Shown here piece after piece: positions 4,430-12,323 of a stretch of DNA of 15,313 nucleotides. The DNA is from Escherichia coli (lineage in GTDB: Bacteria; Pseudomonadota; Gammaproteobacteria; Enterobacterales; Enterobacteriaceae), in the NCBI RefSeq assembly GCF_003334315.1, contig NZ_QOWR01000076.1. One strand, 5' to 3'. Position 1 is the first letter of the stretch. Each line of letters opens with the position of its first letter. The notes beneath the pieces were generated by a model. That model searched no databases and had not been told where the DNA came from. It saw nothing but the letters and a program-made list of their open reading frames with translations. The position numbers and the translations under genes were made by a program.

Positions 4430-4438
4430 TTAAAAAAA

Positions 4439-4465
4439 CCGCTCTCATCGAATGGATGAGAGCGG
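4439..4465. terminator. Bidirectional intrinsic terminator between convergent ybdG and pheP
   Basis: 11-bp perfect stem CCGCTCTCATC / GATGAGAGCGG with a 5-nt loop (4439..4465). An A7 run at 4432-4438 gives a U7 tail for the minus-strand (pheP) transcript; GTTTTG at 4471-4476 gives a weaker tail for the plus-strand (ybdG) transcript. Confidence 0.7.
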
Positions 4466-4496: not shown

Positions 4497-5873
4497 TTAT
4501 TTCCGACGCAGCGTTTTAAATGCCACAAACAGGAATACAATCCACACCGGCAGCAGGATCGCTGACAAGCGCATATCATCCATCGTGCACATCAGCAGCA
4601 AAATCATGCCGAGGAAGGCGATGCAAAGATAGTTGCCGAACGGATAAAGCAGCGCCTTAAACTGTGTTTCACGCCCCTGACGTCGCATCGCTGCACGAAA
4701 ACGCAGATGCGCCAGACAAATCATAATCCAGTTCAACAGCAGCGTTGCTACCACCAGCGCCATCAGCAGACCAAACGCTTTATGCGGCAGCAGATAGTTG
4801 ATTAACACCACCAGCGAAGTGATCGCTCCGGAAAGCATCAGCGAGTTAATCGGCACACCGCGACGGCTGACGCGAGTCAAAAACTTCGGCGCATTACCCT
4901 GCACAGAAAGGCCAAACAGCATGCGGCTGTTAGAGTAAACCCCGCTATTATACACTGACAGCGATGCTACCAGAATGACGAAGTTCAGCGCAGAAGCTAC
5001 CACGTTGCTGTCGAGATTATGGAAAATCATCACAAACGGGCTACTGTTGGATTTCACTTCCATCCACGGATAGAGCGCCAGTAAAACCACCAGTGAACCG
5101 ATGTAAAACAGCAGGATGCGATACACCACCTGATTTACCGCTTTTGGAATGCTTTTTTCCGGATCGCGCGCTTCAGCGGCAGTAATCCCAATCAGCTCCA
5201 GACCGCCGAAGGAGAACATAATTACCGCCAGCGACAAAATCAGCCCATTCCAGCCGGTGACGAAGAAACCACCGTAGCGCCAGAGGTTGTCGATACTGGC
5301 TTTCTCGCCGCCGTGACCAGAAAACAGCAGCCACAGGCCAAAGCCGATCATACCGATGATCGCCAGCACTTTAATCAGCGCAAACCAGAACTCGGTTTCG
5401 CCATATAAGCGCACGTTCACCAGGTTAACGGCGTTGATGATAATAAAGAAGGCGGCAGCCCAAATCCACGTTGGAACATCCGGGAACCAGTACTGCATAT
5501 AGATGCCCGCAGCGGTCAGCTCTGCCATTCCCACCAGCACGAACATTACCCAGTAGTTCCAGCCAGAGAGGAAGCCCGCAAACGGTCCCCAGTATTTATA
5601 GGCAAAGTGGGCAAATGAACCGGATACCGGCTCCTCAACCACCATTTCGCCAAGCTGGCGCATAATCAGGAAAGCGATGATCCCGGCGACGCCGTAGCCC
5701 AGCAATACAGCCGGACCCGCCATCTGAATCGCCGGGCCAATGCCAAGAAACAGACCAGTACCAATTGCGCCACCCAACGCAATCAGTTGAATATGACGGT
5801 TATGTAATCCGCGATGAAGCGTCGGCTCTTGATTCGACGCAGTATCTTCCGATACGGTTGACGCGTTTTTCAC
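4497..5873 (-). CDS. pheP: PheP, phenylalanine-specific permease (APC-family amino acid transporter)
   Basis: Minus-strand ORF. I chose the GTG start at 5873, preceded on the minus strand by CAGGGGAAAGGC, giving a 458-aa product (MKNASTVSEDTASNQEPTLHRGLHNRHIQLIALGGAIGTGLFLG...). Polytopic membrane protein that matches my recollection of E. coli PheP. The track's longer ORF (to 5909) starts at a non-canonical codon. Confidence 0.9.
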   Translation of the reverse strand: MKNASTVSEDTASNQEPTLHRGLHNRHIQLIALGGAIGTGLFLGIGPAIQMAGPAVLLGYGVAGIIAFLIMRQLGEMVVEEPVSGSFAHFAYKYWGPFAGFLSGWNYWVMFVLVGMAELTAAGIYMQYWFPDVPTWIWAAAFFIIINAVNLVNVRLYGETEFWFALIKVLAIIGMIGFGLWLLFSGHGGEKASIDNLWRYGGFFVTGWNGLILSLAVIMFSFGGLELIGITAAEARDPEKSIPKAVNQVVYRILLFYIGSLVVLLALYPWMEVKSNSSPFVMIFHNLDSNVVASALNFVILVASLSVYNSGVYSNSRMLFGLSVQGNAPKFLTRVSRRGVPINSLMLSGAITSLVVLINYLLPHKAFGLLMALVVATLLLNWIMICLAHLRFRAAMRRQGRETQFKALLYPFGNYLCIAFLGMILLLMCTMDDMRLSAILLPVWIVFLFVAFKTLRRK

Positions 5874-5974
5874 GCCTTTCCCCTGTGTGTCTTTTTTGTT
5901 GAGGGGCACCTTTTAACATTTAGTGCCCATCGTCGCAAGACACAATCCACACGGTTAAACGGGGTATCCTGCTT

Positions 5975-8900
5975 TTATTTCCGTACCCGATGTCGGTGCA
6001 GCCACATCAGCTTATACGCCGCCGGGATAATAAACAGCGACAGCAAAGGTGCGGTGATCATGCCGCCAATCATCGGCGCGGCAATCCGGCTCATCACCTC
6101 TGAACCAGCCCCCGTTCCCCACAGAATCGGCAGCAGACCGGCGATAATCACCGCCACCGTCATCGCTTTCGGGCGCACGCGCAGGACCGCGCCGTGATAT
6201 AACGCCTCATCCAGCTTCTGCTCGCTGAATGTTTGTGGATTATTCAACGACGGCACGGCCTCTATGGCGTGACGTAAATACATCAGCATCACCACGCCAA
6301 ATTCGGCGGCGACCCCGGCGAGGGCGATAAAGCCAGTGCCCGTCGCCACGGAAAGATGAAAGCCCATCCACCACAGCAACCAGATGCCGCCCACCAGCGC
6401 AAACGGTACGCTGCTGATAATCAGCAACGCTTCGCCCACCCGACGGAACGCCAGATACAACAGCACGAAGATAATCATCAACGTCATCGGCACCATGAGT
6501 TTAAGCTTATGGTTGGCGCGCTCCAGTAGCTCGAACTGCCCGGAGAATGCCACGCTGGTGCCCGGTTTTAACTGCACTTTTTCAGCTATCGCTTTTTGCA
6601 AATCGTGAACCACCGACACCATGTCACGATCGCGGGCATCGATATAAATCCAGCTCGTCGGGCGCGCATTCTCGGTTTTCAGCATCGACGGTCCGGTAGA
6701 GACTTTAATGTCGGCCACGTCTGCCAGGGTGATTTGCTGCTTCATCGGCGTCAGGATCGGCAGCTGGCGCAGTGCCTGCGGACTATCGCGCCAGCTTTGC
6801 GGATAACGCAGATTAATTGGATAACGGGCAATCCCTTCCACCGTTTCGCCAACCATCGCCCCGCCCACCGCAGAAGTCACAAACAACTGCACATCCGCCA
6901 CCGTCATACCGTAACGTGCGGCTTTTTCACGGTTAATCTCAACGTTGATATAGCGCCCACCTTCCAGCCGCTCGGCAAGCGCAGAAGCTACGCCTGGCAC
7001 CGTTCGCGCTACTTCTTCAATTTGCTCAGCCATCGCGTCGATATCCGCCAGCACAGTGCCGGAAACTTTAATGCCGATGGGGCTTTTAATGCCGGTTGAG
7101 AGCATATCGATACGGTTACGAATTGGCGGCACCCACAGATTCGCCAGCCCCGGCAGCCGCACGGTGTTATCCAGTTCCTCAATGATTTTGTCCATCGTCA
7201 TGCCTGGCCGCCACTGCTCCTGCGGCTTAAGCTGGATGGTCGTTTCTACCATCTCCAGCGGAGCAGAATCGGTGGCGGTTTCCGCTTTCCCGGTTTTGCC
7301 AAATACCCGCGCCACTTCAGGTACGCTCATAATTAGCTTGTCGGTTTTTTGCAGCATACTCGCCGCCTCTGCTGCGGAAATCCCCGGCAGCGTCGATGGC
7401 ATATACAACAAGTCGCCTTCATTGATCTGCGGTAAAAATTCCCCGCCAACTTTATTGAGCGGCCAGAGAACCGTCAGCACCGAAAGCGCCGCCACCAGCA
7501 GCGTGGTTTTCGGCCAGTGCAGTACTTTCAGCAACAGCGGATGATAAACACGAATCAAAAAGCGATTGAGCGGGTTACTGCTTTCCGGCGGAATTTTGCC
7601 ACGGATCCAGTAGCCCATCAGGATCGGGATCACTACGATCGCCAGCAGCGCCGCACCCGCCATCGCATACGTTTTGGTGAACGCCAACGGGCCAAACAGA
7701 CGCCCTTCCTGCCCTTCCAGGGTGAAGATCGGGATAAACGACAACGTGATAATCAGCAGACTGATAAATAGCGCCGGCCCCACTTCAACAGACGCATCGG
7801 TGATCACCTGCCAGCGCGTTTTATTATCCAGCGTGGCGTCAGGATGCTGGTGCTGCCACTCTTCCAGCCGTTTATGCGCATTCTCGATCATGACGATAGC
7901 AGCATCGACCATCGCCCCGACGGCAATCGCAATGCCACCCAACGACATAATATTGGCATTCAGTCCCTGGAAGTGCATGACAATAAAAGCAATACACAAC
8001 CCCAGCGGCAACGAAATAATCGCCACCAGCGCCGAGCGCACATGCCAGAGAAACAGCGCACAGACTACCGCCACCACAATAAACTCTTCCAGCAACTTGC
8101 CGCTGAGGTTGTCGATGGCGCGGTCAATGAGCTGGCTGCGATCGTATGTTGTAACTATCTCCACGCCTTCCGGCAGACTACTTTTCAGCGTTTCCAGTTT
8201 GTCCTTCACGGCGGCGATCACTTCTCGGGCGTTTTTGCCGGATCGCAGGATCACCACCCCGCCCGCCACTTCGCCTTCGCTGTTTAGTTCGGCAATGCCC
8301 CGGCGCATCTCCGGGCCAATCTGGACCTTCGCAACATCGCGCAGATAAACGGGCACGCCATTTTCACTGGCTTTTAAAACGATGTGATTAAAGTCGTCGA
8401 GCGTTTGCAGATAGCCGCTGGCGCGCACCATATATTCCGCTTCCGCCAGTTCGATCGACGAACCGCCCGCTTCCTGGTTTGAAGCATCCAGCGCGCTTTT
8501 TACTTCGGCGAGACTGATGCCATACTGCGCCAGGCGCTGGGGATCGATAACCACCTGATACTCTTTCACCACACCACCCACCGACGCCACTTCCGCAACG
8601 TCAGGGATGGTTTTCAGCTCATATTTGAGAAACCAGTCCTGTAATGAGCGTAAATCGGCCAGATCGTGCTTACCGCTGCGATCCACCAGTGCATATTCAT
8701 AGATCCAGCCAACACCCGTGGCATCTGGCCCCAGCTCGGCGCTGACTCCCGCAGGCAGCTTACCCTGTACCTGGTTGAGGTACTCCAGCACCCGCGAACG
8801 CGCCCAGTACGGATCGGTGCCATCTTCGAAAATGACATACACATAAGAGTCGCCAAACTGTGAGAAACCGCGCACAGTCTTCGCGCCAGGCACCGACAAC

Positions 8901-9118
8901 ATGGTGGTGGTTAGCGGATAAGTCACCTGATTTTCAACGATTTGTGGTGCCTGACCGGGATAGCTGGTTTTAATAATAACCTGCACATCGGAGAGATCCG
9001 GCAGCGCATCCACTGGCGTATTAATGATGGTCCAGGTGCCCCAGATGCTCAGAAACAACGCGCCCATCAGCACCAAAAAACGGTTCGCCACCGAGCGACG
9101 AATAATCCATTCAATCAT
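5975..9118 (-). CDS. cusA: CusA, RND-family inner-membrane Cu(I)/Ag(I) efflux pump
   Basis: 1047-aa ORF with typical RND architecture (12 transmembrane helices, two large periplasmic loops). The translation ([50 protein letters not shown]...) matches my recollection of E. coli CusA at full length. On the minus strand it starts 11 nt after the cusB stop, preceded by GGGA. Confidence 0.95.
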
Positions 9119-9129
9119 TGGTTATTCCC

Positions 9130-10353
9130 TCAATGCGCATGGGTAGCACTTTCAGAGCGCATCCGCTCCAGTGCGCCAGAAATATTGGCTTCGGAATCAA
9201 TCAGGAACAGGCCGCTGGAAACCACCTTTTCACCTTCCGCCAGACCAGAGCGTAATGCGGTGACGCCTTGCGATGCCTGGAAAACAGCAACGCGTTTCGG
9301 TACAAAGCGCCCGTCGGCATCAACGGTAATCACCCGCTGTTCGCTGCCGGTATCAATCAGCGCTTGTGACGGAATGAGCAGCATCGGTTCGCTGGCGGTG
9401 TTGAGTTGCAACCAGGCGTTCATGCCCGGTTTTAGCGCCTCGTCGGCGTTGTCGACTTCCAGACGCAGCTGCAGCGTGCGGGTCGCGGCATCCACGCCAG
9501 GTAGCAGCGTCCATTTGCGGATGGTGAGTGTTTTATCCGGTCGCGCCGGAACGGTGAGGGTAAACTGCGAGGCATCTTTCACCAGCCAGGCGATAGACTC
9601 CGGGATCGCAGCAGTGACCCACACCGGGTCCATACCCTGAATTTTCGCTACCACGTTATCTTTGGCGATATTCATTCCCGCGCGCAGATCAAACGCGGTG
9701 ATCACGCCATCAATGGGCGCTTTGAGCGTAAAGCGAGTCTGGATTTTTTGCGTGGCGATCAGGCGGCGAATATCCGCCTCCGGCATTCCCGCCAGTCGCA
9801 GCCGCTCAAGAATGCCTTCAGTCTGGGTCGCCGTACCGCCGGTTTCGCGCAGCAGTAAATACTCACTCTGCGCTTCCACCCAGTCAGGAATGGTCAGGTC
9901 GAGAAGCGGTGTGCCCTTTTGTACTTTATCGCCCACGGTAAGCGGATACACCTTGTCGATAAACCCGGCAGCGCGAGCCTGCACAATGGCATACTGATAC
10001 TCGTTGTAACTGACATTCGCCGGGAAACTCTGGGCAAAAGTCAGCGGTCCGCGCGTGACGGTAGCCGTTTTCACCCCCAGATTCTGCGTCTGAGTCGGGT
10101 CAATGCGCACACCAGACGCAGAACTCTCTTCATCGGCATATTTCGGCACCAGATCCATATCCATAAACGGCGATTTACCTGGTTTATCGAACCGCGTATT
10201 GGGATACATTAGGTCGTACCAGAATAAGATTTTACGTTCTGCGGTCGACGTTTTTTCTGCAGGCGGTTCCGCCTTTGCAACCCAGGTAAAACCTGCCGCA
10301 GAAATAATACCGCCCGCGATCATGCTGCCGATAATAAGCGCGATTTTTTTCAT
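9130..10353 (-). CDS. cusB: CusB, periplasmic membrane-fusion adaptor of the Cus efflux system
   Basis: 407-aa ORF with an N-terminal signal/anchor (MKKIALIIGSMIAGGIISAAGF). The N-terminal metal-binding methionines are visible in LMYPNTRFDKPGKSPFMDMDL. Correct size and position between cusF and cusA. Confidence 0.95.
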   Translation of the reverse strand: MKKIALIIGSMIAGGIISAAGFTWVAKAEPPAEKTSTAERKILFWYDLMYPNTRFDKPGKSPFMDMDLVPKYADEESSASGVRIDPTQTQNLGVKTATVTRGPLTFAQSFPANVSYNEYQYAIVQARAAGFIDKVYPLTVGDKVQKGTPLLDLTIPDWVEAQSEYLLLRETGGTATQTEGILERLRLAGMPEADIRRLIATQKIQTRFTLKAPIDGVITAFDLRAGMNIAKDNVVAKIQGMDPVWVTAAIPESIAWLVKDASQFTLTVPARPDKTLTIRKWTLLPGVDAATRTLQLRLEVDNADEALKPGMNAWLQLNTASEPMLLIPSQALIDTGSEQRVITVDADGRFVPKRVAVFQASQGVTALRSGLAEGEKVVSSGLFLIDSEANISGALERMRSESATHAH

Positions 10354-10368
10354 CTCATTAAACCTGGG

Positions 10369-10701
10369 TTACTGGCTGACTTTAATATCCTGTAATAAAG
10401 AAAGGTTGCCCTGCTGGACAAAATTAAACGCCACTTTGTCGCCGGTTTTAATTTCACTCATTTTCGTCTGCGGGGTGATGGTAAAGCGCATGGTCATCTC
10501 CGGCCAGTTCACAGCAGCAATCGGATCGTGATGGATGGTGATTTTTTTGCTTTCCAGATCAATACCCTTTACCTCGCCAGTGGCACTAATAACCTGTGGT
10601 TGTGCTTCGCTCATGGTTTCATGATGATGTTCGTTAGCCTGGGCATTAAAGCCAATAACGGTAAACAGACTGAACATTGCGACTTGCAGTGCTTTTTTCA
10701 T
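10369..10701 (-). CDS. cusF: CusF, periplasmic Cu(I)/Ag(I) metallochaperone
   Basis: 110-aa ORF with a signal peptide (MKKALQVAMFSLFTVIGFNAQA). The His/Trp/Met-x-Met ligand cluster is visible in ITIHHDPIAAVNWPEMTMRF. Good AGGAGAG Shine-Dalgarno on the minus strand just upstream of the ATG. Confidence 0.95.
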   Translation of the reverse strand: MKKALQVAMFSLFTVIGFNAQANEHHHETMSEAQPQVISATGEVKGIDLESKKITIHHDPIAAVNWPEMTMRFTITPQTKMSEIKTGDKVAFNFVQQGNLSLLQDIKVSQ

Positions 10702-10858: not shown

Positions 10859-12232
10859 TCAACCGCCACCAAGTGCGGTATACAAAGAAATTTCGTTAAC
10901 CTGACGGGCATAATTCAGGTCGAGTAAAGTTTGTCGGGTTGCAAATAAAGAACGCTCGGCATCCAGCACTTCCAGATAACTTACTGCGCCGTGCTGATAT
11001 AATGCCCGCGCCCGTTGCAAAGTAATTTGCAGCGATGCCAGATAACGCTGCTGGGCGCTAATTTGATCGTTCAGGCTTTGACGTAATGCCAGCGCATCTG
11101 CCACTTCTTTAAAGGCGTTCTGGATTTTCTGTTCATAATTCACCACCGACTGCTGCTGGCGAATTTCGGCGATATCCAGATTGGCCTGGTTGCGTCCGGC
11201 ATTAAAAATGGGGATCTCAATTTTGGGTATAAAATTCCACATCCCGCTGCTGGCGTTAAATAATGACGATAGATCGCTACTGGCGGTCGATATTCCGCTG
11301 GTCAGGCTTATAGACGGAAAAAATGCCGCGCGTGCAGCGCCAATATTGGCATTAGCCGCCATTAACGCGTGTTCAGCTTCCATAATATCCGGGCGCTGCA
11401 ATAAGATTTGCGACGACAATCCCGCCGGTAATTTAACGCTTTGCAGGCTGTCGCTGTTTACTGTCTGCGCTTGCGGCAGCTTGCCGTAGCTTCCCAATAA
11501 CAGTTGCAATGCATTATTCGCCTGCGCCAGTTCCCCCTGACGTTTAGCGATGTCGCTGCGGGTACTTTCAATCACCCCGCGAGCCTGTTCCAGCGCCAGA
11601 ACATTACTGCTACCTGTCAACAGTTGTTTTTCGACAAACGCATATGACTGCTGATAATTACGCAGCGTTTCTTCGGCTATTTGCAATTGCGCATACGCTA
11701 GCTGCTGATTGAAATAACTTTGCGCGACATTAGAAACCAGCAAAATATGCACCGCGCGCTGGGCTTCCTCAGTGGCTAAATAATTTTGGCGCTCGGCTTC
11801 GCTCATGTTCTTTAAGCGACCGAAAAAATCGAGGTCAAAGCTGGCGTTAAGGCCGGTCGAAAACTCCCGTGTCGTGGCGGTATTCCCTTTAAGATTACCG
11901 CTCCAGCTGCCGCTGCCCTCGCCATTGAGCTGTGGGTAGCGGTCGGCATCGGTCAGACGATATTGCGCCCGTGCCTCCTGCACTTTCAGCGTCGCCATGC
12001 GCAAATCCCGATTATTCACCAGCGCCTCGCTAATCAGCGTCTTCACCTGATTATCAACAAAAAAGGTGCGCCAGCCCGCGTTCTGATAGTTATCTGCTGC
12101 GTTAACCAGGCCGTTCTGGCTGAGTGAGAACTGCTGCGGCACGGGCATTGCCGGACGCTGATAATCCGGTGCCAGTGAACAACCGGTTAGCGCAAGGGCC
12201 ACACAAAATGGCAGAAGTTTACAAGGAGACAT
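10859..12232 (-). CDS. cusC: CusC, outer-membrane channel lipoprotein of the Cus efflux system (TolC-like)
   Basis: 457-aa ORF with a lipoprotein signal and lipobox (MSPCKLLPFCVALALTGCSLAP). Outer-membrane-factor family sequence, divergent from cusR and first gene of the cusCFBA operon. Confidence 0.95.
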   Translation of the reverse strand: MSPCKLLPFCVALALTGCSLAPDYQRPAMPVPQQFSLSQNGLVNAADNYQNAGWRTFFVDNQVKTLISEALVNNRDLRMATLKVQEARAQYRLTDADRYPQLNGEGSGSWSGNLKGNTATTREFSTGLNASFDLDFFGRLKNMSEAERQNYLATEEAQRAVHILLVSNVAQSYFNQQLAYAQLQIAEETLRNYQQSYAFVEKQLLTGSSNVLALEQARGVIESTRSDIAKRQGELAQANNALQLLLGSYGKLPQAQTVNSDSLQSVKLPAGLSSQILLQRPDIMEAEHALMAANANIGAARAAFFPSISLTSGISTASSDLSSLFNASSGMWNFIPKIEIPIFNAGRNQANLDIAEIRQQQSVVNYEQKIQNAFKEVADALALRQSLNDQISAQQRYLASLQITLQRARALYQHGAVSYLEVLDAERSLFATRQTLLDLNYARQVNEISLYTALGGG

Positions 12233-12301
12233 AGGCTCATAATTTCTGGTGATTTTATACCGCCAACTTTACTCGCCAGGCTCTGATTTTCCGGTGACAG
12301 G

Positions 12302-12323
12302 AAAATGACAAAATTGTCATTTT
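12302..12323. promoter_or_regulatory. CusR box (response-regulator binding palindrome) in the cusC/cusRS divergent control region
   Basis: AAAATGACAA-AA-TTGTCATTTT: two perfect 10-bp inverted arms around a 2-bp spacer, which is the published CusR-box consensus AAAATGACAANNTTGTCATTTT. It lies between a candidate cusC -10 (TATAAA on the minus strand, plus coordinates 12259..12254) and the candidate cusR promoter. Confidence 0.85.

Follow-up and report, generated by a model that had tools for sequence, protein, structure and literature searches.

The short gap between cusA and pheP in Escherichia coli: a hairpin that is the pheP core promoter, and a probably leaky junction of two transcription units

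The cusCFBA genes of Escherichia coli are followed on the same strand by pheP, and the question raised by this arrangement is where transcripts that start at the cus promoter end and whether some of them continue into pheP. The window, i.e. the whole stretch of 15,313 nucleotides that was analysed, is the cusRS/cusCFBA–pheP–ybdG region of E. coli in reverse complement relative to K-12, with cus and pheP on the minus strand; its coordinates are converted by NC_000913.3 position = 607832 − window position. The 451 nt around the cusA–pheP gap show 100% identity with many complete E. coli genomes, in which the RefSeq annotation also reads cusA followed by pheP. An earlier note, made from the letters alone, had described a 101-bp gap with a weak hairpin of GGGCAC and GTGCCC around a 13-nt loop and a T6 run on the wrong side of it, all of which we confirm (on the plus strand GGGCAC lies at 5904-5909, GTGCCC at 5923-5928 and T6 at 5892-5897). 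What it overlooked is that this hairpin is the pheP core promoter itself and not a failed terminator: the 5' arm falls in the spacer, the extended -10 is in the loop and the discriminator forms the 3' arm. The features are collected in Table 1.

Table 1. Features of the cusA–pheP junction and of the transcription units around it (window positions)
Feature	Position	Strand	Details
PcusC	12258..12320	minus	CusR box ATGACAAAATTGTCAT 12305-12320; -10 TAAAGT 12271-12266; Cappable-seq TSS 12258; presumed source of read-through
cusA ORF	5975..9118	minus	
cusA stop TAA	5977-5975	minus	end of the cusCFBA coding block
cusA–pheP gap	5874-5974		101 bp
CAGGATACCCCG, resembling loop and 3' arm of a GC-rich hairpin	5960..5971	minus	sequence resemblance and position
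-35 hexamer TTGCGA	5933..5938	minus	CTTGC (5939–5935) at least 90% conserved in 80 species
Hairpin	5904..5928	minus	5' arm GGGCAC 5928-5923; loop 5922-5910; 3' arm GTGCCC 5909-5904
Extended -10 TGtTAAAAG	5910..5918	minus	TG 5918-5917; TAAAAG 5915-5910
pheP TSS	5903	minus	Cappable-seq; 7 nt past the -10
pheP 5' UTR, 30 nt	5874..5903	minus	A/CA-rich 5901-5884 (includes A6); Shine-Dalgarno region ACAGGGG 5886-5880
pheP ORF	GTG start 5873-5871, runs to 4497	minus	translation VKNASTVSEDTASNQEPTLH... agrees with PheP
First strong canonical intrinsic terminator downstream of PcusC	4432..4465 (4465-4439)	minus	11-bp stem (7 G-C), 5-nt loop, T7

The gap hairpin resembles a canonical intrinsic terminator, such as the one between pheP and ybdG, in being a GC-rich inverted repeat placed past a stop codon on the transcribed strand, and its stem of six Watson-Crick pairs (five of them G-C) plus one U.G pair reaches the GC-rich 5 bp or more that is expected of such elements. 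It differs from them in the modest length of this stem (6-7 bp), in a loop of 13 nt, or 11 nt when the U.G closing pair is counted, where intrinsic terminators have loops of about 3-8 nt, and in what follows: the sense RNA 3' of the hairpin is CUCAACAAAAAAG, with one U among its first 8 nt, so that there is no U-tract. Further differences are that the pairing is unconserved outside Escherichia and that the hairpin coincides with the core of a promoter. The T6 run, which lies 5' of the hairpin on the plus strand, is read as A6 in the sense RNA. A terminator scan with loops of 3-8 nt, run on both strands, detected no terminator-like site in the gap, and the earlier statement that no canonical intrinsic terminator is found there thus stands. 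The only strong one on the minus strand downstream of PcusC is that between pheP and ybdG, which is bidirectional and shared with the convergent ybdG.

As an inverted repeat the hairpin exceeds chance only marginally: among 2000 dinucleotide-preserving shuffles of the gap, 21% contain a perfect repeat of at least 6 bp with a loop of 3-15 nt, and 3.5% contain one with at least five G-C pairs. The 37-nt segment that contains the hairpin has a predicted folding energy of -13 kcal/mol (z = -3.9), this segment having been picked post hoc, and the gap taken in full shows no exceptional structure (z = -1.6, equalled by 13 of 200 shuffles). A search of positions 5600-6250 against Rfam at a permissive E-value returned only chance-level matches, none of them inside the gap.

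The pheP promoter, which the earlier note expected in this interval, is indeed found there, since the -35, the TG and the -10 are conserved in 80 species and a published transcription start maps to position 5903. The -35 and -10 hexamers are 17 nt apart, within the 16-18 nt expected of a sigma-70 promoter, and the -10 agrees with the consensus at four of six positions, lacking the usual T at -7. In accordance with extended -10 sigma-70 promoters of the TGnTATAAT class, the TG stands one base upstream of the hexamer, the -35 is present at 17-nt spacing and the start lies 7 nt past the -10; unlike them, the pheP promoter has a hexamer without T at -7 and a GC-rich discriminator, GGTGCCC. The conserved -10 is TAAAAG or TAAAAC, never with T at -7 among the species examined, beside the invariant TG and this discriminator. 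So consistent a departure from the consensus is unusual, and it may bear on regulation, for example on sensitivity to ppGpp/DksA. A scan for consensus promoters called none in the gap. In view of the conserved elements and of the mapped start we count this as a false negative; the promoter was missed because the scan requires T at the last -10 position and the hexamer ends in G or C.

To place published start sites in the window we took the shift from U00096.2 to U00096.3 to be +777, which puts the start 601152(+) at window position 5903. With the same shift the cusC start, 594797, falls on A12258, 8 nt past TAAAGT and downstream of the CusR box, and an internal pheP start, 601272 in U00096.2, falls on A5783 of the minus strand, 7 nt past CATATT and 90 nt inside pheP. 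The offset is supported by these checks of internal consistency, and the assigned pheP start is possibly off by 1-2 nt. The start itself is a 5'-triphosphate end seen by Cappable-seq at U00096.2 601152(+) in MG1655 grown in M9 glucose, with a relative read score of 2.37 and an enrichment of 3.65. The hairpin lies wholly upstream of this position, and as RNA it could therefore be present only in transcripts that read through from cus.

How much of the gap is under constraint was examined on PheP loci from 80 species representatives, which gave 76 distinct sequences for hairpin pairing. A cusA gene directly upstream of pheP was found only in Escherichia, namely in K-12, in a sister lineage (L003) and in Escherichia sp. 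MOD1-EC7003 (L004), as well as in a contaminated contig labelled 'Marinobacter'; the E. albertii contig ends 88 nt upstream of pheP. The 'Marinobacter sp. B9-2' contig (PYVH01000101.1, L002) has a cusA–pheP intergenic sequence identical to that of the window and matches to CusA and PheP as for K-12, and it is almost certainly an E. coli contamination of that assembly. Elsewhere pheP is preceded by unrelated DNA; the genera obtained include Citrobacter, Salmonella arizonae and diarizonae, Enterobacter, Klebsiella, Kluyvera and Kosakonia. Whichever the upstream neighbour, the last ~75 nt before the pheP GTG are conserved in the 80 species, in the order CTTGC, a variable spacer, A(A/G)TGTTAAAA(G/C)GTGCCCCTT, an A-rich stretch, ACAGGGG and GTG; T5938, TG 5918-5917, AAAA 5914-5911, G5907 and C5906 are invariant. 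The distance from the cus cluster to the pheP -35 is 36 nt in Escherichia. The restriction of the cusA–pheP juxtaposition to this genus makes it look like an accident of gene order and not like a designed operon.

The pairing of the hairpin does not follow this conservation. Of the cells in the 80-species alignment only 51.5% are paired, and the two outermost pairs are possible in just 11 and 27 of the 76 distinct sequences. The equivalent segment reaches -13 kcal/mol in three Escherichia lineages out of four, the median being -3.8. Pairing is absent in Salmonella and Citrobacter, the nearest genera, and in L004, the closest Escherichia outside E. coli, an A-to-T change in the 5' arm is uncompensated. 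The 3' arm is conserved for promoter reasons, and the 5' arm is a non-conserved spacer sequence specific to Escherichia. Since the hairpin here is a promoter core, conservation of a single arm is not to be read as structural conservation; more generally, a hairpin adjacent to a stop codon can be the core of a promoter instead of an RNA element.

An alternative would be that the hairpin, alone or with an outer stem GUGUCUU/AAGACAC, is a functional RNA element of cus transcripts, either a weak terminator lacking a U-tract or a barrier to 3' exonucleases that sets a stable cusA 3' end once the RNA has been terminated or cleaved farther downstream. This idea draws on the local fold given above, on the whole-gap fold, in which the hairpin is nested inside a longer interrupted stem, and on the low variation of the gap among E. 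coli genomes (at least 99% identity in 5367 of 5404), which is, however, expected of a promoter and accounted for by it. It also draws on a precedent: Rho-terminated transcripts with hairpin-protected 3' ends are known (Dar and Sorek 2018, PMC6061677), and the gap is similar to these in having a stable hairpin without U-tract past the stop codon at which exonuclease trimming could possibly stop, and dissimilar in having no rut-like composition nearby. We regard such an element as unlikely, because the 3' arm and the loop are kept as promoter sequence also where the 5' arm cannot pair, the stem is broken without compensation in L004 and lost in the nearest genera, the U-tract is missing, the loop is long and inverted repeats of this kind are common by chance. 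One observation on its side comes from Phytobacter (L038, L046, L049 and L065), the sole other clade with a stable structure here: an independent, strong hairpin of -8 to -14 kcal/mol surrounds the -10, ~35-70 nt upstream of pheP, with arms CCGTGCC and GGTGCGG that are both unlike those of E. coli. In view of it, some selection for pairing around the -10 is conceivable.

A second, partial structure is located directly after the cusA stop, where CAGGATACCCCG resembles the loop and 3' arm of a GC-rich hairpin. In the sister lineage L003 (3886-3905) 11 additional nucleotides (AGCCGGGGAGG) complete an intact hairpin, CCGGG-GAGGGATA-CCCGG, followed by UUUAAC, and Enterobacter, Lelliottia, Citrobacter and others have a closely similar hairpin, CCGGGGCAGGGATGCCCC(GG), ahead of the pheP promoter. 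A search for an insertion of the L003 type in E. coli gave no hit among 5392 matching complete genomes. Judged from these sequences, E. coli and L004 appear to retain half of an ancestral hairpin whose 5' arm has been lost; the ancestral hairpin itself appears to have had no U-tract.

If no terminator separates cusA from pheP, induction of cus is expected to be visible in pheP, and published RNA-seq data are in accordance with this. In a constitutive cusS R15L strain and in silver-evolved lines pheP changes by a logFC of +2.4 to +3.5 and cusA by +2.3 to +4.0 (PMC11510482), and in lists of differentially expressed genes of cusS mutants pheP recurs together with cusF, cusB and cusA, while the convergent neighbour ybdG never does (PMC10920338). 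The authors of the published cusS-mutant RNA-seq place pheP with the genes that had so far not been linked to CusR function. A search of the window for CusR boxes with up to three mismatches gave a single match, at 12305-12320 between cusR and cusC, and nothing like it near pheP. Co-induction of pheP with cusA, combined with this lack of a CusR box near pheP, makes read-through the simplest explanation, and the induction of pheP in silver-resistant cusS mutants, which two recent RNA-seq studies leave unexplained, can most simply be ascribed to read-through from cusCFBA. The earlier note had left the choice between a Rho-dependent end and read-through, and of the two these data support a partial read-through. 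In the literature on cusA/pheP read-through or on a Rho-dependent terminator of cusA we found nothing explicit.

Direct activation of the pheP promoter by CusR or HprR, in place of read-through, would likewise explain why pheP is grouped with cus, hprRS and hiuH in the gene sets of cusS mutants. We consider it very improbable: apart from the missing box, the pheP promoter is conserved in genera that have no cusA beside pheP, and Genomic SELEX gives pheP as a target of PgrR and not of CusR.

The extent of read-through was estimated from the PRECISE compendium (PMC6892915), in which cusA ranges from 5–188 TPM in 49 samples. Across these samples pheP and cusA are not correlated overall (Pearson 0.15, Spearman 0.00), which we attribute to the dominance of pheP's own promoter and its variation with growth state, and which also implies that most cus RNA does not accumulate over pheP and that attenuation takes place at or near the junction. 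Roughly matched contrasts gave 0.09 pheP TPM per cusA TPM (paraquat series, ΔoxyR versus other strains) and 0.15 (M9 without versus with trace elements). These values suggest that pheP RNA gains ~10–15% of the cusA level, a rough figure drawn from gene-level, steady-state RNA in few contrasts that are not strictly matched. Part of the loss belongs to the operon itself, as ~65% of the signal is lost between cusB and cusA; this polarity extrapolates to a slope of 0.33 for a junction without effect of its own, so that transmission at the junction would be ~0.3-0.45. In cusS mutants the fold changes of pheP and cusA are almost equal, which is more than a coupling of 10-15% predicts, unless the pheP promoter is weak in the media used. 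In the ΔoxyR samples with paraquat cusF, cusB and cusA (620-750, 485 and 183 TPM) are ~5-10-fold above the other paraquat samples, and cusC (10859-12232), at ~200-270 TPM, is discordant with the cusF, cusB and cusA genes (5975-10701, minus strand).

From these results we consider it probable that the gap is a leaky junction of two co-directional transcription units with an internal promoter, and not a terminator. The promoter-proximal 66 nt of the gap are the ancestral sigma-70 promoter of pheP together with its 30-nt CA/A-rich leader. Upon activation of PcusC by CusR, a minor share of the polymerases or transcripts would pass the pheP promoter into pheP and add a copper- and silver-inducible component to the pheP mRNA on top of that from its own promoter; these transcripts would then end at the pheP–ybdG terminator (4465-4439). 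What else is lost at the junction is most likely lost diffusely, through factor-dependent termination or decay, and not by the action of the hairpin. Possible causes are Rho, working at a poor rut site or on early pheP if this is weakly translated, RNA processing, or a small effect of the hairpin.

A stronger role of Rho, in which it ends most cusCFBA transcripts in the gap or in early pheP and a minority of polymerases escape, seems to us possible but doubtful. Ribosomes would leave at the cusA stop, and Rho would then load on the 101 nt of untranslated RNA up to the pheP GUG, or on pheP itself if its GUG start is poorly used. The missing intrinsic terminator and the PRECISE attenuation beyond ordinary operon polarity agree with this. 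The composition of the RNA does not: the gap holds 27 G and 22 C (C/G at most 0.9 within the gap), and in 78-nt windows from 6274 to 5477, sought for a C-rich and G-poor, rut-like region, none was seen, C amounting to 19-29% and G to 22-42%, with C/G at most 1.12 across the junction. C/G stays below 1 throughout the gap, a composition that does not favour Rho, and the gap RNA is moreover predicted to be structured.

Rho mutants give an ambiguous picture. The substitutions R66C and G63V affect residues of the primary RNA-binding domain of Rho. Without silver, the logFC of pheP falls farther below that of cusA in the rho+ R15L strain (a difference of -0.74) than in lines with rho R66C or G63V (-0.02 to -0.50), in favour of the Rho reading, but this trend is reversed with silver. 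In all four silver-evolved populations with cusS R15L one of these rho mutations was also fixed (PMC11510482), which raises the question whether reduced Rho activity aids expression of the long cus operon.

In Term-seq and bicyclomycin data (Adams 2021) no sense-strand 3' end is present at the gap and the Rho regions reported here are antisense only, at NC_000913.3 601157(-) and 602863(-), which is uninformative on cus transcripts, as cus was not induced in those media and is barely expressed in LB. The two antisense regions correspond to window positions 6675 (+), antisense to cusA, and 4969 (+), antisense to pheP. A promoter-like site on the plus strand is also present inside pheP (5416-5444), and it could feed antisense RNA across the gap.

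The leaky junction that we favour shares with other cases of operon read-through past an internal promoter the co-directional genes, a promoter of pheP's own, a first strong terminator placed after pheP and a rise of pheP upon induction of the upstream operon; the coupling looks weak here, at ~10-15% of the cusA RNA level. The cusA–pheP pair is an ordinary example of a known arrangement that is common in E. coli, and no long-standing question hangs on it. A further reading goes beyond this: the Escherichia-specific placement of cus and the lost 5' arm of the ancestral hairpin could reflect a selected coupling, in which the hairpin acts as a partial attenuator or insulator that tunes copper- and silver-inducible uptake of phenylalanine. 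We think this quite unlikely; if it were true, the hairpin that Phytobacter has at this place would suggest that a structural role of RNA or DNA around the -10 recurs.

Several other candidate elements were inspected by eye and rejected. For a sigma-54 promoter, TGGGCAC..GTTA has no GC at -12 and its 5' part is not conserved; for a sigma-32 promoter the spacing of CTTG...CCCC is wrong; a TyrR box lacks its right half-site. Pairing of CCCCU with AGGGG, by which the Shine-Dalgarno region would be sequestered in the 5' UTR, was also discarded, as the changes of CCCC in L016, L029, L038 and L079 are not compensated in GGGG. The CA/A-rich stretch of the pheP 5' UTR (5884-5901, minus strand), CAACAAAAAAGACACACA, is a typical target of the GcvB R1 seed, and GcvB is reported to repress pheP modestly, with an R1 interaction predicted (2025 study, PMC11878033).
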